Counted from the stretch's first letter, positions 19,098-36,756 are shown. The stretch is 64,000 bases of DNA from an uncultured Oscillospiraceae bacterium (GCA_904396495.1 CAJFOJ010000034.1:113-64112), one strand, 5' to 3'. Numbers and translations are program-made. Notes: generated from the letters alone by a model not told the origin.

Positions 19098-19973
19098 ATG
19101 GTGATACATGTAGTAAAGCAAGGCGATAGCGTCTACTCGGTGGCACAGGAATACGGAGTCTCACCGGACCGCCTGCTCATTGACAACGGGCTGAACGACG
19201 CGTCGGAACTAGTCGTCGGTCAGACTCTGGTAATCCTTTACCCAGCCCAGATACATACCGTCAGGGCGGGGGAGACCCTCCGTTCCATCGCATTGCAATA
19301 CGGCTCTACTGTGACGCAGATTTACCGCAACAACCCCCAACTCCAGGCGCTGCCATCACTGATGGAGGGGGAGGAACTGGTGATTTCCTTCCAGCAGCAG
19401 AAAGAGGGTGTTATGTCGGTTAACGGTTACGCCTATGCTTTTATCGATCGAGACCTCTATCGGGAAACACTGCCGTACTTAAGCTATGTGACCCCTTTTA
19501 CCTACGGGTTTACCTCATTAGGGGAATTGGTGGATCTGGACGATGAATTTATGATTGCAGAGGCCCGGGATTACGGCGTGGCCCCGCTGATGCATCTTTC
19601 CACCCTGACGGAAGAAGGGGGATTCAGCAACGAGCTTGCCCATGTGGTTCTCAACGACATGCAGGTACAGGCAAGGCTTATCAACAACATCATCTCCGCC
19701 ATGCGGAGGAAAAACTATTACGGCTTAGACGTGGACTTCGAGTATGTCTTTCCGGAAGATCGGGACGCCTATACTGCCTTTGTGCGGAACCTGCGCAATC
19801 GCTTAAACCCCCTGGGCTATGAGGTGACGGTGGCCCTGGCTCCCAAGACCTCCGCCAACCAACAGGGGCTCCTCTATCAAGGACATGACTTTCGCGGCCT
19901 AGGGCAGGCGGCTAATTGGGTGCTTTTGATGACCTATGAATGGGGGTACACCTACGGCCCTCTTAATGTATAA
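19098..19973 (+). CDS. 5' segment of a split 2xLysM-GH18 (YaaH/SleL-type spore peptidoglycan hydrolase) gene; reading frame runs 13 nt into the inserted element
   Basis: Two LysM repeats (VKQGDSVYSVAQEYGV..., VRAGETLRSIALQYGS...). GH18 catalytic stretch GLDVDFEY. Host sequence ends at YEWGYTYGP (19960). Confidence 0.8.
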   Translation: MVIHVVKQGDSVYSVAQEYGVSPDRLLIDNGLNDASELVVGQTLVILYPAQIHTVRAGETLRSIALQYGSTVTQIYRNNPQLQALPSLMEGEELVISFQQQKEGVMSVNGYAYAFIDRDLYRETLPYLSYVTPFTYGFTSLGELVDLDDEFMIAEARDYGVAPLMHLSTLTEEGGFSNELAHVVLNDMQVQARLINNIISAMRRKNYYGLDVDFEYVFPEDRDAYTAFVRNLRNRLNPLGYEVTVALAPKTSANQQGLLYQGHDFRGLGQAANWVLLMTYEWGYTYGPLNV

Positions 19974-19976
19974 TAT
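19959..19976 (+). repeat. attL core (CC) plus element-side arm TCTTAATGTATAATAT
   Basis: 14 of 16 positions match the reverse complement of the right-end arm at 36318-36333. Confidence 0.65.
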
Positions 19977-20182
19977 ATCGACATACCGAAAGAACCCCTA
20001 TAAATGGCCTTATTATGGGATTTGTCGTAAATTAGCAAATGAATATTTTTAGAATTTATATAAAATAAAAGTATTTATTTTCTAATTTATTCATAAACAG
20101 GGGGCTTTTTAGTCCAATTTTTATTGATAAAATAATACAAAAAATTAATTGATAGAATATTTGATATAGTATATAAAATAAT

Positions 20183-20218
20183 AAATCCGAGAGATATTTC
20201 TTTCGGATTTTTTTATTT
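20183..20218 (+). terminator. Strong hairpin terminator just inside the left end (insulates cargo from host read-through)
   Basis: AAATCCGAGAGA/TCTTTCGGATTT stem (20183-20210) followed by TTTTATTTT. Confidence 0.55.
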
Positions 20219-20585
20219 TATATTAACAACCACTGACTATATCGGTGGAATGAAAAACTTTAGCGATAGAAAAGATAAGCTTGTCTTGGAACGGACGTTA
20301 CATGAATACAACTTTGAGTTTTTTGCGAATACAATGATTTTTATGAAGCCTAAAGAAAAAAATGACTGTTTAACTGATATTTATTTGGTATACGGCTATC
20401 GGTATTGACATACTCATGTGTATATAATTTTTGAAAAATTTTTTACAATGCATAACTTACAAAAAACAATGCATAAAAGATAAAAATGTAAAATAAAAAC
20501 TATTGAATATATATAAAAAATACATTAATATATAAGCATAATATATTAAGTTTATATCAATTGATGTTTTGAGAAAGGTAATTGT

Positions 20586-21632
20586 ATGAAAAACATATTA
20601 CCAGTTGAATATCCGATTGTCACTGGATATCCTGTAATTGCCAATGCGCTTTCTGTTTTACAGACTCGAAAAGAAACAATGAACTGGATTTTATTAAATC
20701 TAATAGTTCCAATTGTGCTGTATGATGCGGAAAATAACAAAGTGCTTTTAGATTTAGGCGGCGATCATACCCCATGGAATACGAGGTATCTGTATGATGA
20801 TTGCCCATTTTTAACTATTTATCGATATGATAGAACTTGGCTTTATGAACAAAATTTTGATATCATCGATTTTGTCAGGTGGAATATTGATCGGCAACAA
20901 TATTTATATACAGATGTTTGCCGGCGATATATATCTGAATATCAGTGTAATGAGTTAGATAAAATGCATGATTTATTTGTATATGGATATGACGACGAGG
21001 AGAAATCTTTTCATATTGCTGATTTTTTTTACGGGCAGAAATATCATCATGTTACAATTCCTTATAATAACTATAAAACCGCTTTTGATGCCGTAGAAAA
21101 GTATAATTTGCCCCATCGTATTGAGCAAACAACAGATATCGTTGTAATTGCGCACAGAGAACTATTCAATACGTGGTTATCGATTGATTATGAAAATCGA
21201 AATTTTGTTTTAGGAGCTCTAAAAGAGCGACTCTTAGAGTGCCTTGGAAAAACTAATACAAGTTATATGAGACTATGGGATAAAAAACTTGCTTATGGCA
21301 TTAATGGGTATACGTTATTAGAACGATATCTCGAAGATAAAAATTTTTATGACACACAGTTTTCTTACTATAATTGTATATGCGTTCAGTTTTTGCTTGA
21401 GCATAAACAGGTTCTTACCAAAATTTGCAACGACATATTAAAAAATGAGTCGCTTATCCAGGAAGGTGAGAATTTGGTCAAAAGCGCAACTATTTTTAAA
21501 AGGCTCATACTAAAGGCGATGGTAAAAAACAGTTGTACATATAATCAACGACAGAATATAGTGATACTTTTGCGTGAGATGAAAGCACGGGAAATATCCT
21601 TGCTCGAAAATATGCTTAGGGCTATTGGCTAA
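20586..21632 (+). CDS. Hypothetical protein, first gene of the AT-rich cargo cluster
   Basis: 348-aa ORF after GAGAAAGG. Only weak cue is HDLFVYGYDDEEKSFHIADFF, a His-containing strand pair reminiscent of papain-fold enzymes. No confident family. Confidence 0.5.
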   Translation: MKNILPVEYPIVTGYPVIANALSVLQTRKETMNWILLNLIVPIVLYDAENNKVLLDLGGDHTPWNTRYLYDDCPFLTIYRYDRTWLYEQNFDIIDFVRWNIDRQQYLYTDVCRRYISEYQCNELDKMHDLFVYGYDDEEKSFHIADFFYGQKYHHVTIPYNNYKTAFDAVEKYNLPHRIEQTTDIVVIAHRELFNTWLSIDYENRNFVLGALKERLLECLGKTNTSYMRLWDKKLAYGINGYTLLERYLEDKNFYDTQFSYYNCICVQFLLEHKQVLTKICNDILKNESLIQEGENLVKSATIFKRLILKAMVKNSCTYNQRQNIVILLREMKAREISLLENMLRAIG

Positions 21633-21912
21633 GAAGTCTGGATATTTTGCCTCAAAAAAAACCATGTTAAATGATCTTTTAGGTTATGCAACACAGTTGA
21701 GCCGCTTTAATTATTTATAATAAAACAGGAATCTGGTTTTAGAATTGCGGCATTTTTCCTTAGCTGTTTGTAGTAGATGGTGCTTTCTATTCATATAAGT
21801 TGTATATAAAATGATGGAGTGGAAAATTTTCTAGATATTTCATTATATATTTTATGAATACTAATTTTTCAATTATCCAAGTAAACTTTTATAATTGTTG
21901 AAGGAGAATCAT

Positions 21913-23580
21913 ATGAATCGATTTAGTGCTTTAAGATGGTGTCTGAGTCTGATGAGAAAAAATATTATAAAATTTATTTTATTAACTATTTTTTCTACTC
22001 TACTAGGAGTATGCGTGGTCTCTGTGTCAATCATTATGAAGTTATTTATGGATATTGCAACTGGTGCTAATACCATTCCTTTGTATATTGGAATTATTAT
22101 ATCCTGTGTTACGTTATTGATTTTAGGATTCTCACAAATTATGACATGCAAGTATCAAGGAAAACTTTTTAGCGACATAGAAATTGGAGTACGGAATACA
22201 ATTGTAAAAAAAATATATTCGGTTTATCTATTAACGTTCGACAGTAACCCATCCAATTTTTATTTTACTCGTCTGACAAAAGACACGGAAATTATCTCTA
22301 ACTTTTTTTCGAATACTTTAGTGAGTAACATTTTCTTTGAATGCTTTACTTTTCTGATTAGTCTAATACTGATGTTTGTATTGGAGTGGAGACTGACAAC
22401 GGTCTTAGCCATTATTGTTCCTATCCTAATTTTTATAATGATAAAAATATCTCCCAAACTTGAATTATATAATAAGTTGATTTTAACAGATGAGGAAGAA
22501 AACAGAAATGTTATTCAGGATTTTTTAAATCGATATCTTCTATTTAAATCTTATGGTATGCAGAAAAACACAAAGCAGAAAATAAATGATAGTTATGAGC
22601 ACAAGCGCAAAAATATTGACCATCTAAGTATTACAAAAGGCTTAATTGGATTTCTAAACAATTTTTTGGGCGTTGGAATGTTTATAATTGCATTATCCTT
22701 CGGAGCGTTTTTAGTGGCCAATGGAAAAACAACTGTAGGTACTTTGGTTGCAGTAGTAAATTTGGTCAGTTTTTATTATGGCCCATTTCTACACATTTCA
22801 GGATGGCTTTCCGATATAAACTCGGTAAAGGCTTCTGTCAACAGAATTGGAGAAATCTTGAGTATGCCTACTGAAAACGTTCCTGATGATAAAAAATATG
22901 AAAAATTGACTTCTACAAAAGAAGTTAATTTACAGGCAAATAATATTTACTTTTCTTACAATGAAAATAAATCGATTTTACACGGTCTCAACTTAATTGC
23001 ATCAAAAGGTGAAATTGTTGCGATTGTTGGAGAAAATGGAAGTGGGAAAAGTACCCTTCTAAAAATTTTAATGGGTTTTTATCAACCTAATCAGGGAAAC
23101 GTAAACATAGAAATTGACGGCAATAAATTTTCTGGGGTTAGTCTGCGAGATCACATCGTTTATGATCCAAGCGATATTTCCGTATTTGCAGGAACTGTTC
23201 AGGATAATATATGTATGAGTTCAGGTTATGACGCTGATCGATTTAATCAGGCAGTTAGCTGTGCAAATCTAGAAGAATTTATAAAAGAAAAAACGGTTCG
23301 GTACGCTATTGATTCTTCTGGTAACAATTTGTCTAGTGGACAAAAGAAAAGAATATCTTTAGCACGAGTGTTTTATAGCAATAGAGATGTCATTATTTTA
23401 GATGAACCAACGACAAATCTGGATGAGCAGTCAATTGAAGAGCTTTGGATTTCTTTAAAAAACATTAGTGCGAATAAAATCTGCCTGGTGGTGACGCATG
23501 ATCAGTCATTTGCATTGCGTTGCGACCGAGTATTAAAATTGTTAAATAAACAATTGGTTGAGGTGAAAAAAAATGCATGA
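21913..23580 (+). CDS. ABC exporter, fused permease + ATPase (no C39 peptidase domain)
   Basis: Six hydrophobic segments, then Walker A GENGSGKST, signature LSSGQKKR and Walker B ILDEPT. Start after GAAGGAGAA. Confidence 0.85.
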   Translation: MNRFSALRWCLSLMRKNIIKFILLTIFSTLLGVCVVSVSIIMKLFMDIATGANTIPLYIGIIISCVTLLILGFSQIMTCKYQGKLFSDIEIGVRNTIVKKIYSVYLLTFDSNPSNFYFTRLTKDTEIISNFFSNTLVSNIFFECFTFLISLILMFVLEWRLTTVLAIIVPILIFIMIKISPKLELYNKLILTDEEENRNVIQDFLNRYLLFKSYGMQKNTKQKINDSYEHKRKNIDHLSITKGLIGFLNNFLGVGMFIIALSFGAFLVANGKTTVGTLVAVVNLVSFYYGPFLHISGWLSDINSVKASVNRIGEILSMPTENVPDDKKYEKLTSTKEVNLQANNIYFSYNENKSILHGLNLIASKGEIVAIVGENGSGKSTLLKILMGFYQPNQGNVNIEIDGNKFSGVSLRDHIVYDPSDISVFAGTVQDNICMSSGYDADRFNQAVSCANLEEFIKEKTVRYAIDSSGNNLSSGQKKRISLARVFYSNRDVIILDEPTTNLDEQSIEELWISLKNISANKICLVVTHDQSFALRCDRVLKLLNKQLVEVKKNA

Positions 23581-24565
23581 TTTAGAATTTTATCATAATC
23601 ATCGCTATTATCCGTTTCCCAAAACAATGCAAATAGAGATTACTACTGCATGTCCTTTGCGATGTCCACAGTGCTTTATTGATAACTTTAATGCTATTTA
23701 TATTAGTTATAACGATTATGTCAATTTAATCGATGAAGCTTATCATTTAGGGGTAAAAGGAATCGTTCTGTTTGGAGGAGAACCATTACTACATAAAAAA
23801 ATCAACGAATTTATCAAGTATGCAGCCAATTTGGATATTACCGTATTTATCTATACAAGCGGATGGGATATAGAAAAAGTTATTCCTACGGTTAAACAAT
23901 ACCCTAGCAAAGTCGTTATTTTACTTTCTATGAATGGTTCAACTAAAGAAATACACGAGTTATCAAGGGACAATTTTACTCTTACCTTTAATGCAATGAA
24001 AATTTTAATGAATTATGGTGTAAAGTACGGAGTTAACTGGGTGTCCAGGCATGATAATATAGAAGACTTGGAATCGTTAATCCATTTAGCACAAGATTAC
24101 AAAGCCTCGTTTGTCAATATAGTCGGAAACAAAATATCGTCGTCGCATTCGGTGCAACAAGCATTGACAAAAGAAGATTATAGTAAGCTTTTACTAATTT
24201 TTAAAAAGTATAAAGGGTTTCTGACAATTGAAAACTGTAATTCCCAATTACAGAATCTGGCTGGAAAGGTCAGTATATTTTCAGGTTGCACAGCTGGTAT
24301 TCTCAATTGTTCGGTTACGGCAGATATGTACTTTGTTCCGTGCTTACGGTTAATTTATAAAGAAAAATATCCATCTATAAAAGACTATTGGGATAATTCA
24401 CCTATTTTAGCTAAACTGCGTGAACCGATTGTGGCTTCTAAGTATTGTAAAGGTTGTCAGTTTGAAAATAGCTGTAGATATTGCAGGGCACAGTCAAATG
24501 AGTCTTATGAAAATTTTCATGCTGGAATTAAAAATTGCGTAGTTAGGGGAATAGAATTATGTTAA
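23573..24565 (+). CDS. Radical SAM enzyme with C-terminal SPASM/twitch-like Cys-rich domain (maturase 1)
   Basis: CPLRCPQC (CX3CX2C) near the N-terminus. C-terminal Cys cluster: GCTAG...NCS...VPC...CKGCQFENSCRYC. 8-nt overlap with the ABC gene. Confidence 0.85.
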   Translation: MHDLEFYHNHRYYPFPKTMQIEITTACPLRCPQCFIDNFNAIYISYNDYVNLIDEAYHLGVKGIVLFGGEPLLHKKINEFIKYAANLDITVFIYTSGWDIEKVIPTVKQYPSKVVILLSMNGSTKEIHELSRDNFTLTFNAMKILMNYGVKYGVNWVSRHDNIEDLESLIHLAQDYKASFVNIVGNKISSSHSVQQALTKEDYSKLLLIFKKYKGFLTIENCNSQLQNLAGKVSIFSGCTAGILNCSVTADMYFVPCLRLIYKEKYPSIKDYWDNSPILAKLREPIVASKYCKGCQFENSCRYCRAQSNESYENFHAGIKNCVVRGIELC

Positions 24566-25866
24566 AGACATCAAAATGTAATATACTTGTAGATGATGGT
24601 ATAGATTTAACAGCTTATAATGTTTTAAGCGGGCAAGTATCCAGATTCACAGGACAAGCCCGTCTGGACGCGAAAGAAGCATTTGGTTTGCACTTTAATA
24701 ATTCTAAATGCAATGAGTTTTTGTCAGATAAAGGATATTTAATTCAGGAAGAGGTTGACGAAGACCAATATATTGAGACCATAAAGAAAAATTTATTTGA
24801 AAACCCGAATACATTATTTTTGACGATACTTCCTACCGAACAGTGTAATTTTAGGTGTAAGTATTGCCCTGAGGTTACAGAAGCCATCTACATGAATGAT
24901 CAGATGGAAGAACAAATAGTAGATTTTTTGGAGAAGGTTTTACCTCGCTATAAAAAATTAGTAATTGCTTGGTTTGGTGGTGAACCATTGCTAGCTGCGG
25001 GCTTTATTAAATCAATTTCGGCTAAAATAAAAAGAATTTGCAAGCGTAACAACGTGCTTTTCAGTGCCACTATTACCACCAATGGATATTTGCTTAATTC
25101 TAAAATGCTTCAAGAAATGTTGACGTGCAATATTGTTAATTTTTGTGTCACCCTTGATGGTGATTCCAATACTCACGATGCGCAAAGGCAGTTGAAAAAT
25201 GGGTTACCTACATGGAGACATATTGTTAATAATCTTATTGATATCCGTGATAATGTTTCATCGAGATTATTCAATATCATAATAAGGACGAATGTCACTA
25301 CGAAAGTATGTGATAATTATATCAATTATTTCAATTTTCTTAACAATAATTTTAATGCAGACCGCCGTTTTAGCTTCATGTGGAGAAAGGCAGAAGATTG
25401 GGGAAATATTGACCAAAATGATATGGCACTGATTGGTAGCCGTTCCGATTTTACAGAATTTCTTCAGAAAGTAAAAGATTTTGGATTACGTGATAGTCTG
25501 ACCGCTCGTTCTCTCAGACCTATAGATCGTATTTGTACTACTGCAACGAAAAATGCTTTGGTTATTTTTTCCGATGGGCGTATCAGTAAGTGTTCTAGAG
25601 ATGTCCACCCGGAAGTAACAACTCTAGGATATTTAGACGATTTATTATCCGATGCAGATTTCTTTCTTTCTAAATCTCTGGACTTAGTACATAAAACCAG
25701 TTGCCAAACGTGCCAAAGATATTATAATTGTTTAGGACTCGGCTGTCCTCTGGAAGCTGATGAGTGTAATTTGGATTCAAAATATATTATCAATATTCTT
25801 AAGAATATTCAGGATAATGATTTGGAAATAGGAAAAATAAAATCTTTTGGAGGTTGCTATGAATAA
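24559..25866 (+). CDS. Radical SAM/SPASM enzyme with about 90-aa N-terminal extension (possible peptide-recognition domain) (maturase 2)
   Basis: CNFRCKYC motif and GGEPLL. C-terminal CTTAT...KCS...CQTCQRYYNCLGLGCP...EC. 7-nt overlap upstream. Confidence 0.85.
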   Translation: MLKTSKCNILVDDGIDLTAYNVLSGQVSRFTGQARLDAKEAFGLHFNNSKCNEFLSDKGYLIQEEVDEDQYIETIKKNLFENPNTLFLTILPTEQCNFRCKYCPEVTEAIYMNDQMEEQIVDFLEKVLPRYKKLVIAWFGGEPLLAAGFIKSISAKIKRICKRNNVLFSATITTNGYLLNSKMLQEMLTCNIVNFCVTLDGDSNTHDAQRQLKNGLPTWRHIVNNLIDIRDNVSSRLFNIIIRTNVTTKVCDNYINYFNFLNNNFNADRRFSFMWRKAEDWGNIDQNDMALIGSRSDFTEFLQKVKDFGLRDSLTARSLRPIDRICTTATKNALVIFSDGRISKCSRDVHPEVTTLGYLDDLLSDADFFLSKSLDLVHKTSCQTCQRYYNCLGLGCPLEADECNLDSKYIINILKNIQDNDLEIGKIKSFGGCYE

Positions 25867-26125
25867 TATAAAAGAAGAGATTATACAAATATTGATCGAA
25901 TATAGTTTGATCGACCAAGAGTCTGACTTGTACACAGAAAAGTATTCCGATAGCATTGAAGAAATTGATTCTATTTCATACATATCAATATTGGCAAGCA
26001 TAGAAGACCATTTTGATATTAATTTACCTGATGAAGCACTAACAGGAAACGCTTTGAAAAATATTTCCCTCCTAGAACAATTAGTTAGAAACAATTTGCC
26101 AATCAAATTAAATTCCACTAACTAG
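25859..26125 (+). CDS. Acyl/peptidyl carrier protein-like small acidic protein
   Basis: 88 aa. EEIDSISYISILASIEDHF resembles the DSL/phosphopantetheine-Ser helix of carrier proteins. 8-nt overlap with rSAM 2. Confidence 0.6.
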   Translation: MNNIKEEIIQILIEYSLIDQESDLYTEKYSDSIEEIDSISYISILASIEDHFDINLPDEALTGNALKNISLLEQLVRNNLPIKLNSTN

Positions 26126-26211
26126 ACATTACATTTTCTAAAACTCCGTAATCCTGATTTTAAGCGCGTTTTAATGATCATGGATATTTGATAATGAAAG
26201 GAGGGACAATA

Positions 26212-26289
26212 ATGAAGTTGTTGAAAAAGAACAAAGTACAGCATAAAGCGGTACTGAATCAAGAGTTTGTTTGCTTTGGAGTTTGCTAA
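26212..26289 (+). CDS. Candidate RiPP precursor peptide, 25 aa: MKLLKKNKVQHKAVLNQEFVCFGVC
   Basis: Not in the ORF track (too short). SD AAAGGAGGG (26197-26205) lies 6 nt before the ATG. Basic leader, C-terminal CFGVC. Sits between the rSAM/ACP genes and the protease gene. Confidence 0.6.
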   Translation: MKLLKKNKVQHKAVLNQEFVCFGVC

Positions 26290-26322
26290 TATAATTTTTT
26301 TGATGAGGTAAATTGTTTTATC

Positions 26323-26349
26323 ATAAGGGCGGCACTAAGCTGCCCTTAT
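26323..26349 (+). terminator. Hairpin after the precursor sORF (attenuator-type partial terminator)
   Basis: 11-bp stem ATAAGGGCGGC/GCTGCCCTTAT with loop ACTAA and a weak U-tract. The next gene's RBS (AAGGAG) follows immediately. Confidence 0.45.
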
Positions 26350-26367
26350 AATTTTAAGGAGCATATC

Positions 26368-28727: not shown

Positions 28728-28739
28728 TTAAGCAAAAAG

Positions 28740-28774
28740 AAAGAGAGATATTGCCAAGCGCAATATCTCTCTTT
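28740..28774 (-). terminator. Rho-independent terminator of the PRTase/SLOG operon
   Basis: Perfect 15-bp stem AAAGAGAGATATTGC/GCAATATCTCTCTTT with loop CAAGC. A T-rich run follows on the minus strand. Lies 8 nt past the stop at 28782. Confidence 0.65.
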
Positions 28775-28781
28775 TACTATG

Positions 28782-29348
28782 TCAATTTCCGGATAGAAGT
28801 ACCGAGTTTTTTAATAAACTTGAATATAATAATCTTGTTTTGGGATTGCACAATGCCACTAATTTATTTACATCCTTAAAACTGCTGGCAACTATCATTT
28901 TATTTTGAGTGGTAAGATAAATTAAAACTTTTTTGTTCTGTGAAATCAGATTAATAATATTATTTAAGGTTCCTCGGCTTTCTCCGTCCCAAATCATAAA
29001 ACCATAATCAGCCTCATTAGCCATTGCTATGTCTTTCTGCTTATAGAAATCAAAGCCTCGCACATTGGAGGGCACCGAAACATTATGGATATTCCAACGT
29101 CCAACATTATTTCGTGCTTTTCCATTGCTTGCAAACACGATTACGTTATTATATCCCAGTTGATAATAAAAATTTTGCACGGAAGTGTCTACACCATAAC
29201 AGTCTCCTACAAGTACATCATAACCCTTTTGATAAATAGACATCATTTTTTTTTGAACAGAAGCATCTAAACTTTTTACAGACCTTGCTCCAGCTATAAA
29301 AATTTTCACGGTATAGGTACTCCTTTCAGCATTATTTTGTTTTTGCAA
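28782..29348 (-). CDS. SLOG/DprA-like Rossmann-fold protein (ShosA-like candidate antitoxin)
   Basis: IFIAGARS...YDVLVGDCYGVDTSVQ...VIVFASNG...EADYGFMIWDGESRGTLNNI pattern of DprA/SLOG folds. An alternative GTG start at 29309 follows GAAAGGAG. Confidence 0.55.
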   Translation of the reverse strand: MQKQNNAERSTYTVKIFIAGARSVKSLDASVQKKMMSIYQKGYDVLVGDCYGVDTSVQNFYYQLGYNNVIVFASNGKARNNVGRWNIHNVSVPSNVRGFDFYKQKDIAMANEADYGFMIWDGESRGTLNNIINLISQNKKVLIYLTTQNKMIVASSFKDVNKLVALCNPKTRLLYSSLLKNSVLLSGN

Positions 29349-29901
29349 TGGCTAAGTAATATACTTTTTCAATAAGGGGATCGCTCTTTAATACTGATAC
29401 ACACTCATTTGCTGTTTCGCCAGAAGAATAAAAATCATCAATTAGCAATATATTACAGTGCCTTTTTGCTTCTTTCAGTTTTACAATAGATCCTTTTAGC
29501 GATTTTGAATCTTTTGGCATATTTTTTGCTGGATTACTGTCTATCTTTTTTAAAACTTCCTCAGAATATGGAATACGTAATTTTGAAGCGATGGATTCAG
29601 CGATCATATATACAGGCTGACTAAGTCTTTCGGAAGTTGGTGGTGCAGGAAGAATGATATCTATTTTTATGTCAGATAACCATTGTTTTAAAACATCACA
29701 GCAAATCCCTGCGATTTCATTACTCGTATCAAAATGACCGTTATATTTCATAGCGTGTAGCAATGTGCCTATTGTAGTATAGGAAGTATTGAACTGTGGA
29801 TGCCCAAAAACATCATCGCCAATATATTCGCTTGACTCAACGTATTTATCAATAACAAGACCTTCATCCCAAAGTCCAGTAACAAAAAGGACAGAATTCA
29901 T
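29332..29901 (-). CDS. Type I phosphoribosyltransferase (ComF-like; ShosT-like candidate toxin)
   Basis: PRPP-binding signature ILLIDDFYSSGETANE. Start chosen at the ATG after AGGTGA; the track ORF extends to 29952. Confidence 0.65.
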   Translation of the reverse strand: MNSVLFVTGLWDEGLVIDKYVESSEYIGDDVFGHPQFNTSYTTIGTLLHAMKYNGHFDTSNEIAGICCDVLKQWLSDIKIDIILPAPPTSERLSQPVYMIAESIASKLRIPYSEEVLKKIDSNPAKNMPKDSKSLKGSIVKLKEAKRHCNILLIDDFYSSGETANECVSVLKSDPLIEKVYYLAIAKTK

Positions 29902-29994
29902 GATTATGTTCACCTGCATCTTTCCATAATTATAATATCGCAAAATTGTCAAAAAATCAATGTCCGGTTATCTTTTTCGAAATACAGTTAGATA

Positions 29995-31365
29995 TCACGG
30001 AACAATCGCGCCGCTGCCATCGGTCTGAAGCATCTGGCACTCCTTGATGTCTCCATAGGATTCCTCAAAGAAATAGTAATCCTTGCCTGCAATGGTGCGG
30101 AAGCCTCTGGCTGCGTTTCCTTTGCCTGGCTCAAAGTAGTACCACCTGCCGCCAATCTGCTGCCAGCCTTCCAGCATGGCTCCACTGTCGCTCAGATAAT
30201 ACCATTCGCCTTTCTCTTCCAGCCACCCGGTTTTCATGGCTCCACCCGCATTGAGATAGTACCAGACATTTCCAACCTTGCACCAGCCTATTGCCATCTC
30301 GCCGTTGGATTTGAGGTAATACCATTTGTTCTGGTCGAAAAGCCAGCCTGTCGCCATAGCTCCGCTGGATTTTAAGAAATACCACTTGCCGTCCACCTCG
30401 ACCCAGCCGGTCGCCATGTAGCCGTCGGAATTGAGATAGTACCAAATCCCCTGGACTTTCTTCCAGCCCACCACGTCTTTTCCGTTTTCCCGGTAACGCC
30501 ATTTTCCCGACTGCTTGTACCAGCCCTCAGCGGGTGCAGGCGGTGTGACAGGCTCTTTTCCCGTTTCCAGCAGTTTGCCGTCTATGTACACCCCGTCGAT
30601 TGCCCACGCCTCAAAGAGTGGCAGGGGAAAGTTGTTGCGCTGGCTCCAGGTGACGATGCTGTAGGGCATGGTGAAGAGCCCCTTTTTCCCGAAGCCCTCC
30701 CCCCAGGAATTCAAAACGGTGAATCCATCTTTGTCCCAGCCGACAATCAGCATCATGTGGCCGCCCGCCATGGGTTCCAGGCTTGTGCCGTCGATGCGGG
30801 GCTCCGGCATAATCGGGTTTGTATCCGAAATCTCATAGAAGCTTTTGAATACAATTGTGCCTACTAAAACCGGATACCCGTTGTATACCGCCTGTTTTAC
30901 CTCTTCCGCACCCATGCACTGGTAGTAGTTTTTGATGCGGATATTCTGGGCTTCGTCCTTGAACTGGCTGTATTTGCTGTTAAAGGTGTGCATGGCTTCC
31001 ACCATTTCTTCTTCAAAGGGATACCGGGCAAAGGCAAGGCCTCCGTCTTTCTGAGCGGCTTTCAAAAGGCCTCTCGCCTCTGTCCCTTCTCCCTGGTATT
31101 CGGTGTGTCTCCGGTTGCCGTAGTACCAGGGAAAACTGATGGGTTCGTATTTTCCCGCCTTGCTGAGCAGGATCTCCACACAGGCGCTGAGTGCGTGTGT
31201 GCCGCAGTTTTGGTATTCGCCCTGGTCGTGTACCTGGATGCCGGAAACGTCCAACTGAAAGCTCTCCGGCAGCGGCTCCGCGCCGTATGTAGCCCCAAAG
31301 ATAAAGTCTCTCGGGTCTGGCTCTGTTTGGATGAGGCCAAGGCCTCTGTTTTCATATTCGCTCAT
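29995..31365 (-). CDS. Lysin: papain-like (C1-type) cysteine peptidase domain + about 9 cell-wall-binding (CW_binding_1/choline-binding-type) repeats
   Basis: QGEYQNCGTHALS (Cys), GGHMMLIVGW (His) and LNSWGEGFGKKG. Repeats of the GW..(x)GKWYYL.. type span aa 283-440 (nt about 29998-30519). Confidence 0.75.
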   Translation of the reverse strand: MSEYENRGLGLIQTEPDPRDFIFGATYGAEPLPESFQLDVSGIQVHDQGEYQNCGTHALSACVEILLSKAGKYEPISFPWYYGNRRHTEYQGEGTEARGLLKAAQKDGGLAFARYPFEEEMVEAMHTFNSKYSQFKDEAQNIRIKNYYQCMGAEEVKQAVYNGYPVLVGTIVFKSFYEISDTNPIMPEPRIDGTSLEPMAGGHMMLIVGWDKDGFTVLNSWGEGFGKKGLFTMPYSIVTWSQRNNFPLPLFEAWAIDGVYIDGKLLETGKEPVTPPAPAEGWYKQSGKWRYRENGKDVVGWKKVQGIWYYLNSDGYMATGWVEVDGKWYFLKSSGAMATGWLFDQNKWYYLKSNGEMAIGWCKVGNVWYYLNAGGAMKTGWLEEKGEWYYLSDSGAMLEGWQQIGGRWYYFEPGKGNAARGFRTIAGKDYYFFEESYGDIKECQMLQTDGSGAIVP

Positions 31366-31375
31366 GTTTTCCTCC

Positions 31376-32005
31376 TTACTTTAAATGCCCATATTCATCT
31401 GTTTTAAGCATCTGTCCCTCTTTGATCTTCCCGTACCCCCTGGGCGCGAAACAGTACGTCTTTCCGTCAATGCGCTGGGGGCCGGATGCCGTGTACTTTC
31501 CGTCAAAGTAGTACCAGCAGCCGTCTACAAATGCCCAGTCGTTTTGAAAGGCTCCGTATGTCCAGCCTTTGGAGGTCTTTTTCCAGATATAGAAGATGTG
31601 GTTATCCGGCATCCCTTCATTGGGGAGTCCGAGGATGGTATGGGGCATGACGTTGCGGTCGTACCGGTCACGCACCTGATAATGACAGTGTGCGCCAAAG
31701 CTTAAACCGGTGTTTCCCATAACCCCTAATTTGGTTCCAATCTCTACCCGCTGTCCCACCGAGACCGCCCGGCTTGCCATGTGGCAGAAATAGTGCTTGT
31801 TGCCTTGGGCGTCATCCACCCGGACGTAATTGCCCCATTCCCATGTGACATCTCCGCTGGATTTTGGGATGATGGTAGATGATTTTACTACACCCTCCAC
31901 CGGGCTCACAATGTTTTTGCTGGAAAGCCCAACAATGTCCATCCCGATATGCCCCGAGTGGTATTTCTGGGTCACTTTGAAATTGCCGTTGAAAATCCGT
32001 CTCAC
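31376..32005 (-). CDS. M23 family metallopeptidase lysin with one C-terminal wall-binding repeat
   Basis: HIGMD (HxxxD) and GAHCHYQV (HxH). The C-terminal tail DGKTYCF...YGKIKEGQMLKTDEYG parallels the tail of the neighbouring lysin. Confidence 0.75.
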   Translation of the reverse strand: MRRIFNGNFKVTQKYHSGHIGMDIVGLSSKNIVSPVEGVVKSSTIIPKSSGDVTWEWGNYVRVDDAQGNKHYFCHMASRAVSVGQRVEIGTKLGVMGNTGLSFGAHCHYQVRDRYDRNVMPHTILGLPNEGMPDNHIFYIWKKTSKGWTYGAFQNDWAFVDGCWYYFDGKYTASGPQRIDGKTYCFAPRGYGKIKEGQMLKTDEYGHLK

Positions 32006-32009
32006 AGGA

Positions 32010-32255
32010 TCACCCTCTTTTCTTTTTCAGTTCCCTCATGTACTCGTCTGCCTGTACCGCTTCCTGTGTAAACGAGTTGTTCTTCCACCAAGACCACAAT
32101 GCCGCAGCTGTGGTAAGCAGCAAGGTAAATCCCTCATATGCCTGCTCGTCCGACCATGGAAGGGGATTGTGCCCCGAAATAGTCAAAATTTGATTGAGCA
32201 ATGCAAAAATAAGTACGCCTGTCCGTGCAATGGTGCTGATTGATAAGTTTTTCAT
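32010..32255 (-). CDS. Holin, phage phi-LC3 family-like
   Basis: 81 aa starting at the ATG after ACAGGAGGAA. Two TM segments and a hallmark WWKNNSFTQEA tail. The track ORF start at 32354 is rejected. Confidence 0.75.
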   Translation of the reverse strand: MKNLSISTIARTGVLIFALLNQILTISGHNPLPWSDEQAYEGFTLLLTTAAALWSWWKNNSFTQEAVQADEYMRELKKKRG

Positions 32256-32272
32256 TCTGATTCCTCCTGTCT

Positions 32273-32581
32273 TTACATTCCGATTTGGGTAAATACAAAT
32301 CCCAATACAATTCCGACTACAGCCGTGACGGCATATCCGACTACTTTCCTCCACATTGCGCCGTCCCTGCCTTCCAGCTCTTCCAGCCGCTTTCCCTGCT
32401 CCTGCTGCTCCCTCTGCATATTTTCCATATTGGTCGCCAGCCTCTCTACGGAAACCAGCAGTTTGTTGTTTTGTTCCAATCCTTTTTCCAAATCATTCAG
32501 GCGGTGATGAATTCTTTTGTGTTCTTCGTCCATCCGCTTGACAAATTCGATGTGTTCTGCTCTTGCAATTGGTGTATCCAC
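32273..32581 (-). CDS. XhlA-like lysis-module protein (coiled coil + C-terminal TM)
   Basis: 102 aa. Charged coiled-coil N-terminus, then C-terminal WRKVVGYAVTAVVGIVLGFVF. Sits immediately upstream of the holin, as in PBSX-type cassettes. Confidence 0.6.
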   Translation of the reverse strand: MDTPIARAEHIEFVKRMDEEHKRIHHRLNDLEKGLEQNNKLLVSVERLATNMENMQREQQEQGKRLEELEGRDGAMWRKVVGYAVTAVVGIVLGFVFTQIGM

Positions 32582-32585
32582 GTCC

Positions 32586-33662
32586 TCACTCCTTTAATTT
32601 GTATTCACCCCGGTTGCCACCGGAGCCACACGCGCGGGCCGCAAGGCCCCAGTTAGCAGCGCTGAGGCCAGAGTTCAGAAGAACACAGGCAAAACCACAG
32701 TAGCTCCAAACGTCCAGATGTCCAAAAGCCGGCCATACACGCCAGCTGGTAGTTACTGCGCCGTCACGGTAAACACCTGCACGGTAGCCGGCAGTGGAGG
32801 AGTCTGCAAAGGTCTGTGCAAGCATATATGCCTCCTGGTTGTTTGCATCCCAGTTAAGCTCTGCAATGTATTTCCACGCCGCATCCGTTTCCTTTGGGAT
32901 AGTACCAATCGTTACGGAGTTGGCGCCGTTTCCGTTTTCCGCAATATCGGAAGCCTTGCGGTTAAGGTACACGGTGTACTTTTCGGCATCCTCGTAAAGG
33001 GTGGTATCACCGGGCACCTCGTATGCACCTACCATCACCTCAATGCCCTGGATCTTGCAGGGCTCTTTGCCGGAGGTGTTATTGGTCGGGCTGCCGTCAT
33101 TGCCGGGCACTTCGTCTGTGCTGCCGGTCTGCCACGGGTGCGTCACAATGTAGGTGGCGGTTGTGGTGTTAAAGGGTGTTTCAGTGTCGAGGTTTACAGC
33201 TTTGTATGCTGTGCCGTCCACCGTTACATCCTCCATGCTCAAAATCTTTGTAATATCGCACACATCGTATGTGGTAGCCTTTGCACGGTCATTTGTGCTG
33301 CCGAGTGATACGCAGCTGCCCACCACAAAATATGAGCCTTGTGTGGGGGTAAGCAGCACGCGGGTAACGCCTGTTTCGGCGGCCGCCGCTGTGTATGTGG
33401 TTGAATAACTGCGGCAGCCCGTCATTACCTGCGCCGAGCCGAGCACTGCATATTTAATCTCAAGCATAAGCTGGATAAATGCAATATCGCAAAGGCTGGA
33501 GCCGCAGTATTGGTTGCCCCATTCACGCCATTTTGCGATCTGCCCGTTAAAGCTGATTGAAGTCGATCCCTCGGAGCCGGGGCGCATTGTTGCGGGCTGT
33601 ACGCCGGAAACGCTGGAAAGCAGTCCGGCAGAGTTGTATCCAGCCGCATACTTGGCGTGCAC
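32586..33662 (-). pseudogene. Phage tail-fibre/receptor-binding-like structural gene, apparently frameshifted near its 5' end
   Basis: Long ORF opens at a GTG without an RBS. A well-placed ATG (33721, after AGAAGGA) opens a different frame (MILLRLNDDKTLSIPFAAL...). A single-nt shift near 33660 would join them. Confidence 0.45.
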
Positions 33663-33725
33663 AACAAAGCTGCGAACGGTATGCTTAATGTTTTATCATC
33701 GTTTAGTCGTAATAAAATCATATAA

Positions 33726-33878
33726 TCAATCCTTCTTGTCAGTTTTGCGATCTCCTAAGATAATTTTAGAAACTACCTCTTGCAAGTTGCTCAACGAAGG
33801 AACATCTTCCACACTATATCGTCCTGCTCTGATCACACTGACCCATGTCCTGACTATTCCGCTATTTTCATCAAACAT
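33726..33878 (-). CDS. XkdX-like small phage protein (50 aa)
   Basis: sORF MFDENSGIVRTWVSVIRAGRYSVEDVPSLSNLQEVVSKIILGDRKTDKKD. Tightly packed between neighbouring late genes. Not in the track. Confidence 0.4.
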   Translation of the reverse strand: MFDENSGIVRTWVSVIRAGRYSVEDVPSLSNLQEVVSKIILGDRKTDKKD

Positions 33879-33889
33879 ATATCATGCTC

Positions 33890-34192
33890 CTATTCTTCTT
33901 TTTTCTGAAGATTTGCAATCAAAATAGAAAGTTCCGCAATTGCCATTTCCATTTGCGCCTGCAATTCCTTTTGTTCTTGCAGATGCTGATGTTCTGTAAT
34001 TTCTACCATGGTGACAGACTCAGTGCCCAATATGTTGTTCTTTCCATCAATGTGGTATACGGTTCCGTCTATTAAAACCCCATTGGCATCTGATTGCTCA
34101 CACAACCCAAAGCAGCCATTGTCATAAACGGTTATCCATTTGGGGTTATTTAACGTAGATAGCACTGTGCTGTCTTTTATAAATCTGTACAT
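33890..34192 (-). CDS. Phage late-region hypothetical protein
   Basis: 100-aa ORF with RBS TGGAGGAA. First gene of the retained minus-strand late block. Confidence 0.5.
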   Translation of the reverse strand: MYRFIKDSTVLSTLNNPKWITVYDNGCFGLCEQSDANGVLIDGTVYHIDGKNNILGTESVTMVEITEHQHLQEQKELQAQMEMAIAELSILIANLQKKEE

Positions 34193-34250
34193 ATAAATTC
34201 CTCCATTAAACGCTGATTAAACGCAGAATGCAAACCCTTTCAACGTTACC

Positions 34251-34445
34251 ATGATAAGCATCAATGGCAACTTTAATAATGTAGTTGCCTTGCACAATGA
34301 CAGCGATGAATCTCAAATCATAGAACCGGACGAGCGTATTGCCCAATTAATCGTCCAGCCGTATCTGAATGTTGAGCTTAAAGAGGTTGACAGTTTGTCA
34401 AATACAGAACGAGGCAGCGGTGGATTTGGTTCTACGGGTAAGTAA
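34251..34445 (+). pseudogene. C-terminal stub of a dUTPase
   Basis: Ends ...DERIAQLIVQPY...NTERGSGGFGSTGK (dUTPase motifs 4-5). Motifs 1-3 are missing or degenerate. Confidence 0.6.
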
Positions 34446-34472
34446 AATATCATATGCTGATATAAAAGCGAG

Positions 34473-34625
34473 GTGGTATTTATCGAAGAATCTTCTGCTT
34501 TTTATGAGATGATTCAAAAAATGATTGAACAAACTGTATTGTATCAATTAAAGGAAGAAAATTACATAAAGGACGCTCAATACAACGCAATTATTAGAAA
34601 AATGCAAAACGATTTAACACAATAA
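34473..34625 (+). CDS. Small ORF (50 aa from GTG; 38 aa from ATG 34509) directly upstream of the recombinase
   Basis: VVFIEESSAFYEMIQKMIEQTVLYQLKEENYIKDAQYNAIIRKMQNDLTQ. GAGG overlaps the GTG. Coding status uncertain. Confidence 0.25.
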   Translation: MVFIEESSAFYEMIQKMIEQTVLYQLKEENYIKDAQYNAIIRKMQNDLTQ

Positions 34626-34628
34626 TAC

Positions 34629-34670
34629 TTGATAGTCTAGCCTTACTTATGTATAGTATAAGTAAGGCTA
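34629..34670 (+). promoter_or_regulatory. Near-consensus sigma-A-type promoter overlapped by a perfect 13-bp palindrome (candidate operator) upstream of the recombinase
   Basis: TTGATA (34629-34634), 17-nt spacer, TATAGT (34652-34657). Palindrome TAGCCTTACTTAT (34638-34650) / ATAAGTAAGGCTA (34658-34670). Confidence 0.5.
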
Positions 34671-34717
34671 AAACTTTAGGGGTTTCTTTCGTTTTGCGGA
34701 AAGGAGAAAGAAACTAC

Positions 34718-36310
34718 ATGAATGTTGCAGCGTATTGTAGAGTATCAACCGATGAGGAGGATCAAAAAAACAGTTTTGAGAGTCAGAAGTTATATTTTGA
34801 GAATTATATAAACAATAATCCAGAATGGAGCCTGGTAAATATTTATGCTGATGAAGGAATTACAGGTACAAACACTAAAAAAAGAGTTCAATTCCAAAAA
34901 ATGATTAATGACGCTTCTAAAGGGATCATCGATCTTATTTTGACGAAAGAAGTTTCACGCTTTGCCAGAAACACTGTAGATACTCTATCTTACACAAGAC
35001 AACTAAAATCATGGAACGTAGGGGTGATATTTTTATCAGATAATATCAACACGCTTGATAACGATGGAGAGTTGCGTTTAACAATCATGGCATCTATGGC
35101 TCAAGAGGAGTCGAGAAAGACGTCTGAACGTGTCAAATGGGGAATAAAGCGTAAAATGGAAAACGGGTTTGTTTTTGCTCCGGATCTTTTAGGATACGAT
35201 GTGAGAAATGGCAAGATATCGATTAACGAGGAAGAAGCTGTTACAGTCAGGAAGATTTTCGATATGTTTACAAACCAGAAAAAATCTGCACATGCCATAG
35301 CCAAAGAATTCACAGAGCAAGGAATAGAACCGGTAAAAAGAATGAAATCTTGGTCGTCAACCACTATTTATAGGATACTAAAAAACGAGAAATACGTTGG
35401 GGATTTATTACAAAAAAAGAAAATTACAGAAGATTTCCTATCTCACAAATTAGTCGATAACGATGGGCAAGAGGAAAAAATATTTATTGCGAATCATCAT
35501 GACCCAATTATAGACAGAGAATTGTGGGAAGAAACTCAAAGGATCATTACTTTAAATAAACTTACTAACCAAAGAGATAAAGTGTCTAATGTCTACTGGT
35601 GCTCCGGTAAAATTATTTGTGGATTATGTGGCAAACACTTTTCAATAAGGGCGAAAAAGCTCAAGAGCGGCAGGATCGTCAGGTCGTGGAAGTGTATTGA
35701 AAGGATGCATTTTGGTGTCAAAAAGATCAATGGTCTGGGCAAAGAAATAGGGTGTGACAATCCTTATATAAATCAAATTGCCTTAGAGAATTGTATCAAA
35801 TTTGCATTATCAAAGATATTGACGATAAATCAAGAAGATATTCTAAAAGATCTTAAAAGCTACATTGATTCATTATCCCGTAATGACGACTCAGAGGATG
35901 CCGAAATTGATCTTTTAAACAAAAAGATCAAAGAATCTGAAAAGAAAAAATTAAAAATAATAAAAATGTATATCGATGAACAAATTGAAGAATCGGAAAT
36001 GATGAAACTAAAGGAACAATATGATGTCGAAATAGACAAAATGAAGAAAAGAATTTTATTATTAATGCAACAAAAAAAGTCATCAACCCAAACGTATAAC
36101 TCCATTGATAATATTTTTAATAAAGTGAAAGATATTGTCGAAAATGAAAAGTATTACAACGAAAACTTTTATAATAAAATAGTTGATAAAATGGTTGCGT
36201 TTCCAGGAATAATCGACATTTATTTTAGAAATTTTCCGATACCAATTAAAGTTAAGTACCAGACAAAAGGTAGAGGAAAAAGCTATCAAACACTGTGTGA
36301 GTTAGTTTGA
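34718..36310 (+). CDS. Large serine recombinase (integrase/excisionase of the element)
   Basis: AAYCRVSTDEEDQ catalytic Ser region, SRFARN, recombinase domain, zinc-ribbon Cys pairs (CSGKIICGLCG ... WKC) and a long coiled-coil tail. Start after GGAAAGGAGAAAG. Confidence 0.9.
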   Translation: MNVAAYCRVSTDEEDQKNSFESQKLYFENYINNNPEWSLVNIYADEGITGTNTKKRVQFQKMINDASKGIIDLILTKEVSRFARNTVDTLSYTRQLKSWNVGVIFLSDNINTLDNDGELRLTIMASMAQEESRKTSERVKWGIKRKMENGFVFAPDLLGYDVRNGKISINEEEAVTVRKIFDMFTNQKKSAHAIAKEFTEQGIEPVKRMKSWSSTTIYRILKNEKYVGDLLQKKKITEDFLSHKLVDNDGQEEKIFIANHHDPIIDRELWEETQRIITLNKLTNQRDKVSNVYWCSGKIICGLCGKHFSIRAKKLKSGRIVRSWKCIERMHFGVKKINGLGKEIGCDNPYINQIALENCIKFALSKILTINQEDILKDLKSYIDSLSRNDDSEDAEIDLLNKKIKESEKKKLKIIKMYIDEQIEESEMMKLKEQYDVEIDKMKKRILLLMQQKKSSTQTYNSIDNIFNKVKDIVENEKYYNENFYNKIVDKMVAFPGIIDIYFRNFPIPIKVKYQTKGRGKSYQTLCELV

Positions 36311-36317
36311 AATCGCC

Positions 36318-36335
36318 ATATTATACCTTAACACC
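36318..36335 (+). repeat. attR element-side arm ATATTATACCTTAACA plus core CC
   Basis: Inverted partner of 19961-19976. Host coding sequence resumes at 36336. Confidence 0.65.
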
Positions 36336-36756
36336 GCCAATGGCGGTAAGCCCCATCGATAAAGTCCGGGAAGTGCTGGATTACGCTGTCACCGAAATCG
36401 ATTCAAAAAAAATTTTTTTAGGAGTACCCAATTATGGCTACGATTGGATGCTTCCCTTTGTACAGGGTGAATCCAGGGCTACTCTGATTTCCAATGTCCA
36501 CGCTGTGGAGCTCGCCCGACAGTACGGTGCGGAGATTCAGTTTGATGAGACTGCGCAAGCTCCCTTTTTCCGTTATTATGACAGGCAGGGTAGGCAGCAC
36601 GAGGTCTGGTTTGAGGATGCCCGCAGCATCCGCAGAAAGCTTCAACTGGTTCCCGAATACGGTTTTCAGGGGGTGGGTTATTGGAACCTGATGCGCCCGT
36701 TTCCGCAAAACTGGACAGTTTTAAATGCTCTTTACCATATTCGCAAAATTTTGTAA
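36336..36756 (+). CDS. 3' segment of the split LysM-GH18 (YaaH/SleL-type) gene
   Basis: (P)PMAVSPIDKVREVLDYA...LGVPNYGYDW...GVGYWNL is the C-terminal half of a GH18 barrel. It is in frame with 19098-19960. The track ORF from 36307 uses an element-derived TTG. Confidence 0.8.

Follow-up and report, generated by a model that had tools for sequence, protein, structure and literature searches.

Several genes of spore formation are known to be interrupted by intervening elements, for which skin, SPbeta, vfbin, gin and yin provide the precedents (PMC4191935, PMC5595907, PMC5025042, PMC10747680). Kohm et al. (bioRxiv 10.1101/2021.11.22.469490), citing Abe et al. 2013, name yaaH and cotJC among the genes in which phages or transposons frequently integrate in species outside the Subtilis clade. 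Here, we analyze a stretch of 64,000 nucleotides from an uncultured Oscillospiraceae bacterium (GCA_904396495.1, CAJFOJ010000034.1:113-64112; hereafter the window), in which a sleL/yaaH gene, of the type that encodes a spore cortex hydrolase, is split by an intervening element of 16,375 bp (16.4 kb, positions 19961-36335) that carries its own large serine recombinase (LSR). A first-pass annotation of this DNA had proposed such an element in a target that it suggested was undescribed; that novelty does not hold, given the listing of yaaH as an integration target that Kohm et al. cite from Abe et al. 2013, and our search of the literature on sleL/yaaH together with prophage, attB or integrase returned no experimental study of a sleL/yaaH element. 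Two points go beyond the annotation: the element is a decayed prophage, and its site is re-used by a whole clade of LSRs. Our analysis shows integration at a conserved sleL attB by a serine integrase, followed by decay of the prophage with retention of the recombination unit and of both halves of the gene. Developmental excision in the mother cell, restoring sleL, is the most likely mechanism by analogy with the known elements, and we assign it a probability of roughly 0.6.

The 5′ piece of sleL/yaaH (19098-19960, plus strand, 863 nt) encodes two LysM domains and the N-terminal two thirds of a GH18 domain, including the catalytic DVDFE, and its translation runs from MVIHVVKQGD to YEWGYTYGP at 19960. 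The reading frame continues into the element as far as a stop at 19973, giving a truncated product of 291 aa (recorded as P0005). The 3′ piece (36336-36756, plus strand, 421 nt) supplies the C-terminal third of the GH18 barrel, from (P)PMAVSPIDKV to the stop codon. Joined in silico, the pieces amount to 1284 nt, or 427 aa and a stop, in frame, and Pfam assigns to the rejoined protein two N-terminal LysM domains and a single Glyco_hydro_18 over residues 174-406 that spans the junction at residue 288. The best match among solved structures is SleL of B. cereus (4s3j, E 5e-99), which aligns full length with residues 4-422; YaaH of B. megaterium (4s3k, E 1e-96) likewise matches full length, and YdhD (3cz8) matches with a lower score and in the catalytic domain only. 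The D-x-D-x-E motif of GH18 enzymes is present as GLDVDFE in the 5′ piece, aligned to IHFDFE of 4s3j, and the GPPMA(V/I)SPI motif at the insertion point is also conserved in the SleL structures. Judged from its domains and its collinearity with these structures, the split gene is of SleL/YaaH type (two LysM and GH18), as had been proposed. Automated calling places the start of the 5′ piece at an upstream in-frame ATG at 18978 (331 aa, with 18978-19097 as extra sequence); homologues, together with a GGGAGG ribosome-binding site, favor 19098 instead.

A search of about 5.8 billion proteins recovers intact 427-aa homologues with 83-89% identity to the rejoined protein over 100% of its length, and many more at ~65% identity; several are source-labelled Oscillospiraceae or other Clostridia, and uninterrupted 427-aa orthologues number hundreds. 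One intact allele, P0003 at locus L081, lies in the same neighborhood and is followed by Wzz, a CpsD-like kinase, CpsB and Polysacc_synt_2. Positions 1641-2527 of L081 correspond to 19071-19957 of the window, and 2532-7527 to 36337-41347; because L081 is thus collinear on both sides, the 16,375 bp at 19961-36335 are an insertion. Its limits follow from this gap, from the gene content and from a break in base composition, the GC content falling sharply at 19961 to 0.27-0.34 and averaging 0.37 over the element against 0.52 in the left flank. The coordinates, sequences and in-frame restoration of 427 codons given by the first-pass annotation are all confirmed, an uninterrupted allele collinear over the exact junction exists in a related genome, and the possibility that the pieces stem from two paralogues is ruled out by the intact homologues covering the whole joined protein and by L081.

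The two junctions have the structure of serine-integrase attachment sites. At attL (19936-19984) the host B arm, ending ...CCTACGGCCC at 19960, adjoins the P′ arm of the element (TCTTAATGTATAATATATCGACAT), so that the sequence reads ...CCTACGGCCC, the break, and then TCTTAATGTATAATAT. At attR (36312-36360) the P arm of the element (ATCGCCATATTATACCTTAACACC, to 36335) adjoins the host B′ arm (GCCAATGGCGG...), the sequence being ...ATATTATACCTTAACACC, the break, and then GCCAATGGCGG. Both sites have a CC dinucleotide at the break. The rejoined sleL junction is predicted to be CCTACGGCCCGCCAATGGCGG, and that of the circle TTAACACCTCTTAATG (also written CCTTAACACCTCTTAATGTATAAT). The reconstructed attP is an imperfect inverted repeat with 17/22 symmetric matches around the central CC, compared with a mean of 6 and a maximum of 15 at 20,000 random centers in the element; no inverted repeat was found within either junction region alone, the dyad emerging only once attP is reconstructed. 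In 81 intact orthologues, attB has the DNA consensus GAaTGGGG.TAtACcTacGG.CCgCC.ATGGC.GT.GC.CC and encodes the peptide EWGYTYGPPMAVAP. The attB falls in the most conserved stretch of sleL, EWGYTYGP/PMAVSP, with the break between the two prolines.

The LSR gene (34718-36310, plus strand, 530 aa) combines Resolvase, Recombinase and zinc ribbon domains (PF00239, PF07508 and PF13408, all above cut-off), and its nucleophile Ser10 (YCRVST) is invariant in 18 homologues. Homologues support the start at 34718 (MNVAAYCRVST), a longer open reading frame (ORF) from 34649 being 23 codons too long. Among curated NCBIfam families, CcrC, CcrB and XisF come closest, each scoring far under its cut-off. The gene had been placed 8 bp from the right arm; this stands for the repeat arm, as its stop at 36310 lies 7 nt before the P arm of attR (from 36318), but not for the host 3′ piece, which is 25 nt away. 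With the CC core, the dyad and the three recombinase domains, the prediction that serine-integrase sites bound the insert, with an intact LSR inside, is upheld; that precise excision restores the ORF holds in silico only.

The site is used repeatedly. A junction RACC/NCCNATGGC, with the break between the two parts, occurs at the identical codon in six lineages, namely the window, L255/L256, L253/L254, L248, L251 (Anaerovorax odorimutans) and L252. Relatives of the LSR with 47-51% identity are followed directly by a GH18 3′ piece of 115-151 aa (in the Clostridiaceae NSJ-31 lineage, Anaerovorax odorimutans and two other genomes). In the NSJ-31 lineage the sleL-inserted element is found on 11 contigs, and L253 (GCA_015550005.1, JADMZY010000010.1) contains a second complete split sleL, present also in L254, in which a non-phage element of 8,578 bp (3055-11632) separates pieces that rejoin in frame to 426 aa. 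This element consists of a 1729-aa glycosidase of GH97/F5_F8-type-C composition, two small regulators, a small ORF and the LSR, and its attL and attR share a 9-bp core, ACCCGCTCA. The metagenome-type contig of the window could in principle be chimeric, and two fragments of different paralogues could have come to lie side by side by chance. We found nothing in support of such an artefact, however, and we regard it as effectively refuted: the pieces meet at a single codon of one and the same orthologue, L081 is collinear with them, the attP dyad at the junctions is non-random, and the same junction recurs in independent assemblies of six lineages.

The origin of the element is apparent from its closest relatives. 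In L255 (1-12821) and L256 (1-3406), an LSR 94.5% identical to that of the window occupies the same sleL site, with flanks of ~80% nucleotide identity, and belongs to a fuller prophage with the order DNA polymerase III alpha, Thy1, dNMP kinase, ClpP, PhoH, NrdD, an intact 144-aa dUTPase, small ORF and LSR; RelB is also among its genes. The LSR is followed by the GH18 3′ piece and then by host Wzz-CpsD-CpsB-Polysacc_synt_2-DegT, as in the window, the DNA compared extending to neither the left prophage end nor the 5′ sleL piece. In the window, the dUTPase gene (34251-34445, plus strand) is reduced to its last 52 residues (Pfam dUTPase positions 78-129 of 129), and the homology to L255 begins inside it, at 34275, which we therefore take as the breakpoint of an internal deletion. 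Upstream lies a tail-fibre-like structural gene (32586-33662, minus strand) that is truncated at its N-terminus (phrog_17147, E 6e-71, profile positions 255-613 of 616). On phage contigs with an LSR of 51-52% identity, dUTPase, small ORF and LSR precede an attP-like dyad whose core is ...GCACC, beyond which the other strand encodes amidase and tail genes; this order, dUTPase-small ORF-LSR-attP-lysis, is that expected of an unintegrated phage. The cargo block of the window occupies the place of a lone 61-aa ORF that lies between attP and the lysis genes in these free phages. On its gene content, the element is thus best described as a degraded prophage with added cargo, whose two ends persist and whose middle is gone. 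The GenBank/INPHARED set contains no close phage, the best LSR identities being 43-45%, to unannotated fecal phage fragments.

On the free phage contig L247, an attP-like site (~8660-8700) reads ..CAGCACCGCCTATTGATG..; a 9-nt core, ACCGCCTAT, is common to this site and to the sleL junction of L248 (~2385-2420), ..AAGACCGCCTATGGCGG.., which fits with integration of L247-type phages into sleL as well, although this is predicted from the shared core. A looser P-arm pattern retrieved only L257 and L258, which we rejected as chance matches, neither being homologous to the window or to sleL.

The gene that was split may have the promoter of a mother-cell gene. A -10-like box, CATATACT, lies at 19063-19070 (plus strand), 28-35 nt upstream of the sleL start, with an AC 15 nt further upstream. 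In C. difficile, sigE and sigK promoters share a CATATAAT-type -10 box with a -35 of ATA or AC (Saujet et al., PMC3789822); the box upstream of sleL matches this -10 box, and a mother-cell-type promoter (sigE/sigK) is predicted. The pattern CATAN[AG]NT is present at -65 to -16 in 48/80 intact sleL orthologues, compared with a mean of 2.7 and a maximum of 9 in shuffled sequences and 3 on the reverse strand. Boxes of the GCATATACT/CATATAAT type are seen 20-60 nt 5′ of sleL orthologues in many families of Clostridia (the same 48/80 loci, from the upstream regions of L001-L081), and could serve to mark mother-cell promoters in uncultured spore formers. SleL itself is a widely conserved sporulation gene (bioRxiv 10.1101/2022.02.25.481979), and its product is counted among the conserved inner-coat proteins in the literature.

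Between the dUTPase remnant and the LSR lie two further parts of the recombination module. A conserved 50-aa ORF (34473-34625, plus strand), immediately upstream of the LSR and 90% identical in L255/L256, is a candidate accessory or recombination directionality factor (RDF). It belongs to a family of ~45-60 aa, SHOCT-like proteins with the core GIxxQLxxxxLlTxxQyxxLl, encoded upstream of the LSR in both the sleL clade and the cotJC clade described below. A hidden Markov model from 6 seeds detects the family at 24 loci of the LSR clade, comprising 9 seed-source loci, the window included, and 15 new ones. The small ORF is followed by a hairpin with a 14-bp stem (34638-34670, plus strand), with a TATAAT-like sequence in or near the loop and then a T-rich run; the 75 nt at 34626-34700 fold with -23.2 kcal/mol (z -3.7). 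Analogous hairpins stand at the equivalent position in L246, L085, L249 and L083 despite differing sequences, which suggests that the hairpin may be a conserved regulatory device for integrase expression.

The history of the element can be read from these parts. The LSR of a temperate phage of Clostridia recombined its attP with the attB inside sleL, after which a single internal deletion removed everything between the tail-fibre gene and the dUTPase gene. AttL and the lysis cassette now enclose a low-GC block, comprising a radical-SAM cluster for a ribosomally synthesized and post-translationally modified peptide (RiPP) and a defence-like PRTase gene pair. As a plausible mechanism, the LSR and a directionality factor, for which the 50-aa ORF is the best candidate, would recombine attL with attR in the mother cell during sporulation; the 16.4-kb circle would be released and the 427-codon sleL rebuilt under its own sigE/sigK-type promoter, allowing SleL to be made for the spore. 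The forespore chromosome would retain the element, which, with its cargo, would thus be inherited through spores. Excision in the mother cell is favored by the retention of exactly those parts that it would need, since the LSR, attL, attR, the small ORF and both sleL halves are intact while the adjacent phage genes are truncated or deleted. It is further favored by the low ratio of nonsynonymous to synonymous divergence of the LSR (dN/dS 0.04), which indicates strong purifying selection, and by the conservation of sleL. The sleL pieces have a dN of 0.08-0.10, with dS saturated, and the split allele has acquired no extra changes: Tajima tests give 10-13 unique changes in the split allele vs 10-15 in the closest intact alleles (P0001/P0002), and in none of 12 comparisons is there an excess of amino-acid change in the window lineage. 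The CATAN[AG]NT box of the sleL family, kept in the window as CATATACT, and the precedents of skin, SPbeta, vfbin, vrin, gin and yin point in the same direction.

Several observations weigh against mother-cell excision. No excision product is present in the collections searched, the exact attP (a 34-mer with one N) is absent from IMG/VR, and no 100% identical intact allele is found among the protein matches, the best reaching 89%. The role of the 50-aa ORF as directionality factor is a guess, even though it is the best candidate. The window, L083 and L250 have a sporulation-type box 5′ of the small ORF, L248 and L251 have none, and CATAN[AG]NT is not enriched 5′ of the LSR module across the clade (19/70 on the plus strand, 18/70 on the minus strand, ~15 in shuffled sequences), the only regularity being positional, with 12/21 matches clustered at -300 to -250. 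The dS of the LSR is 0.65 and that of host genes >2; because the former is far below the latter, related hosts must have acquired related phages independently, and we rejected on the same grounds a co-divergence of element and host that would have implied long residence with the gene preserved. The insertion could therefore be recent, which would explain intact halves without selection. Searching the window for sporulation genes besides sleL returned none, a result uninformative on spore formation by the host. Finally, Bacillus sleL mutants still germinate, if more slowly, so that a permanently broken gene may be tolerable.

Alternatively, the element could be a static remnant of a prophage that landed at a conserved site harmless during vegetative growth, inactivated the gene and has ceased to excise at a useful rate, leaving spores without SleL. 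The heavy degradation of the prophage, the lack of excision products in the databases, the near-equal counts of the box on the two strands 5′ of the LSR module, the dispensability of SleL for germination in Bacillus and the intact halves, equally expected after a recent insertion, are all compatible with this explanation. Yet a static remnant leaves unexplained why truncation and deletion have struck neighboring phage genes and spared the LSR, the small ORF and both att sites, why the LSR has a dN/dS of 0.04 and the split allele is not accelerated, and why both halves are again intact in the NSJ-31 lineage, on 11 contigs and with a minimal, non-phage element. Moreover, the targets of the whole LSR clade and of its sister are spore genes of predicted mother-cell type, and elements proven to excise sit in genes of this kind. 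We consider a static remnant unlikely, though it deserves to be taken seriously.

The second question is when excision would occur. Rather than being timed by sporulation, it could be stochastic or follow a phage-like induction, e.g., by DNA damage, in any growth phase, restoring sleL in a subpopulation. The close relatives of the element are indeed real phages for which free genomes are found, the excised form of yin in C. botulinum is detected at all time points (PMC10747680), a sporulation-type promoter 5′ of the LSR module is not seen clade-wide, and the TATAAT in the hairpin upstream of the LSR is sigma-A-like. However, with its replication and structural genes lost, phage-type induction of the element would be pointless; CATATGCT lies 22 nt upstream of the 50-aa ORF in the window, and CATATGCT is likewise found just upstream in L083; and the known sporulation elements are timed by the promoter of the RDF or the recombinase (PMC5025042, PMC5595907). 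Excision independent of development therefore appears rather improbable to us, and mother-cell excision is the reading that we retain.

The relatives of the LSR extend beyond sleL. Among the first 164 loci, taken from metagenome and viral collections, a screen for pieces of sleL matched only three, all from the NSJ-31 lineage; the others turned out to flank cotJC, a spore coat gene of the Mn-catalase family, and the later sleL cases come from individual look-ups. Most of the more distant LSR relatives (43-49% identity, or 43-48% for those from metagenomes, and many of human-gut metagenome origin) are inserted in cotJC in either orientation, adjoining cotJB and cotJA (L086-L165 and L250; e.g., L094 downstream of 11629, L108 at 2338-3245 on the minus strand and L250 at 12863-13258). 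A neighbor-joining tree, built without bootstrap, groups the free phages with the window and the other five lineages that have an insertion in sleL, and sets apart 66 loci as a sister cotJC clade. The product of the targeted gene is a spore protein in both cases, and the C. difficile cotJB2-cotD operon has been reported to carry sigK consensus elements. In the cotJC element of Acetivibrio alkalicellulosi (L250), a toxin-like Endonuclea_NS_2 gene and a YezG-like immunity gene (11692-12799) are found between the LSR and the cotJC 3′ piece, so that cargo lies on the other side of the integrase compared with the window. More broadly, and only tentatively, we envisage a large, hitherto uncharacterized LSR clade of anaerobic and gut Clostridia, with sister lineages specific for sleL and cotJC, that might both be excised in the mother cell by way of a new family of small directionality factors (the ~45-60 aa, SHOCT-like proteins) and that, after phage decay, might become vehicles by which cargo of RiPP, defence or glycosidase type passes along the spore germ line.

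The cargo of the window begins with a low-GC block on the plus strand. Its first gene encodes a 348-aa protein (20586-21632) with no Pfam, NCBIfam or PADLOC match, and is followed by an ABC exporter of the bacteriocin/RiPP-export type (21895-23580; Pfam ABC_membrane and ABC_tran, with NCBIfam bacteriocin-type ABC families all below their curated cut-offs). Next come two radical-SAM enzymes (23573-24565 and 24559-25866; Pfam Radical_SAM), the second of the radical SAM/SPASM RiPP-maturase type; their NCBIfam matches (TIGR04463, Clo7bot, PapB and CefB-type) are all far below the equivalog cut-offs, and we therefore assign no specific RiPP class. A 92-aa protein (25847-26125) is weakly carrier-protein-like (PP-binding, E 5e-4, 20.7 bits vs a cut-off of 20.8). 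A scan for small ORFs yields a speculative candidate RiPP precursor, ...MKLLKKNKVQHKAVLNQEFVCFGVC (26194-26289), chosen for its position and Cys-containing C-terminus only. The block continues with an S8 subtilase fused to a TIGR04066-like peptide-maturation domain (26368-28134). With a radical SAM/SPASM maturase, an exporter and a protease, this is the composition of a radical-SAM RiPP cluster, and the RiPP cargo announced by the first-pass annotation is indeed present.

The defence cargo that it also announced fares less clearly. A two-gene pair on the minus strand (28782-29952) is a candidate ShosTA/PsyrTA-like defence module, in which the PRTase-domain protein (29332-29952) matches PsyrT in PADLOC with E 1.5e-14, over only the C-terminal 147 of 689 profile positions, and ShosT with E 1e-4. 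The proposal is supported only in part; the 188-aa neighbor (28782-29348) has no PADLOC match and only a very weak Pfam match to YpsA/SLOG (E 0.099). Beyond the pair lies a phage lysis cassette (29995-32581, minus strand; GC about 0.5; Pfam and PHROG matches) with a C1-peptidase/choline-binding endolysin (29995-31365), an M23 peptidase (31376-32005), an SPP1-type holin (32010-32354) and an XhlA-like protein (32273-32581). The element is a mosaic in base composition, the RiPP/PRTase block and the LSR end having a GC content of 0.27-0.36 and the lysis/tail-fibre block (29995-34000) a host-like 0.49-0.53; parts differing in this way probably have different origins. Outside the element, sleL is flanked by two large polysaccharide-synthesis loci (40-18622 and 37091-58966) with glycosyltransferases, Wzy-like, Wzz, a CpsD-like kinase, CpsB, Polysacc_synt_2 and DegT, the right-hand locus being lower in GC (0.43 overall). 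Also close by are genes for an EAL-domain protein (2876-5449) and for a protein of the GH5 cellulase family (11979-13565).

If excision does take place, DNA rearrangement in the course of sporulation would restore sleL as it does sigK, spsM, spoVFB, spoVR, gerE and yabG, and the case would come from Clostridia that are uncultured or little studied and have relatives among gut spore formers. The set of attB, attP and LSR, with its natural variants in six lineages and in the cotJC sister clade, can be used for studying how serine integrases change their targets, and the family of the 50-aa ORF is a concrete candidate for a new family of directionality factors. For annotation there is a warning: wherever a metagenome-assembled genome contains a split sleL or cotJC, the gene will appear as a pseudogene or as separate 'GH18' and 'Mn catalase' fragments.

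Set beside the known systems, the element interrupts the coding sequence of a sporulation gene (the SleL/YaaH ORF, at codon 288) and carries its own recombinase beside an att site, ending 7 nt before the P arm of attR; in silico, precise recombination of attL with attR also restores the ORF. These are the structural features of the skin/SPbeta/vfbin class, and the element would work in the manner of skin or of a defective SPbeta. Like skin in sigK (SpoIVCA in B. subtilis; skinCd with CD1231 and the RDF CD1234 in C. difficile), it is a degraded prophage in a sporulation gene, here of predicted mother-cell type, with the LSR gene adjoining one att site, precise excision restoring the ORF and cargo that varies while the recombination unit is conserved. 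It differs in that the target of skin is a sigma factor and that of the window the spore protein SleL, so that excision here would not gate a developmental programme; the LSR is distant, and excision, known for skin, is here proposed by analogy. SPbeta in spsM (SprA/SprB) and, from Abe et al. 2013, vfbin (spoVFB) and vrin (spoVR) are likewise phages or phage-derived elements that an LSR has placed in late mother-cell genes (for sleL by prediction) of the spore envelope or cortex, with active phages beside defective derivatives (here L255/L246 vs the window). Unlike them, it resides in a host of the Clostridia instead of the Bacilli, has a different attB and LSR lineage, and encodes no identified SprB-like RDF, a different small ORF being conserved.

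The yaaH and cotJC targets of Abe et al. 2013, as cited by Kohm et al., are the same genes as those of the two sister LSR clades. The gin element in gerE of B. cereus ATCC 10987 (GirC/GirX) demonstrates that intervening elements need not be phage-like, as is the case in L253 of the NSJ-31 lineage; gin has three recombinases and a 9-bp core, whereas the window element is phage-derived and has one LSR. The yin element in yabG of C. botulinum V73 is again a clostridial prophage-like element; its recombinase is of the LSR type, and it has a putative RDF as well as a putative sigK promoter, but it is unique to one strain, whereas the sleL site is used in at least six lineages. The target protein, finally, resembles SleL/YaaH of Bacillus (4s3j, 4s3k) in its two LysM domains and GH18, in its length of about 427-436 aa and in being alignable over its full length; the sequence similarity is moderate (E 5e-99), and the specificity of the enzyme and its role in germination in Clostridia are putative. 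The element thus introduces no new principle and is another example of the known intervening elements of sporulation genes; what is new is the detail, namely a clostridial LSR clade with sister specificities for sleL and cotJC, exact att sites, a conserved small ORF, and RiPP and defence-like cargo.

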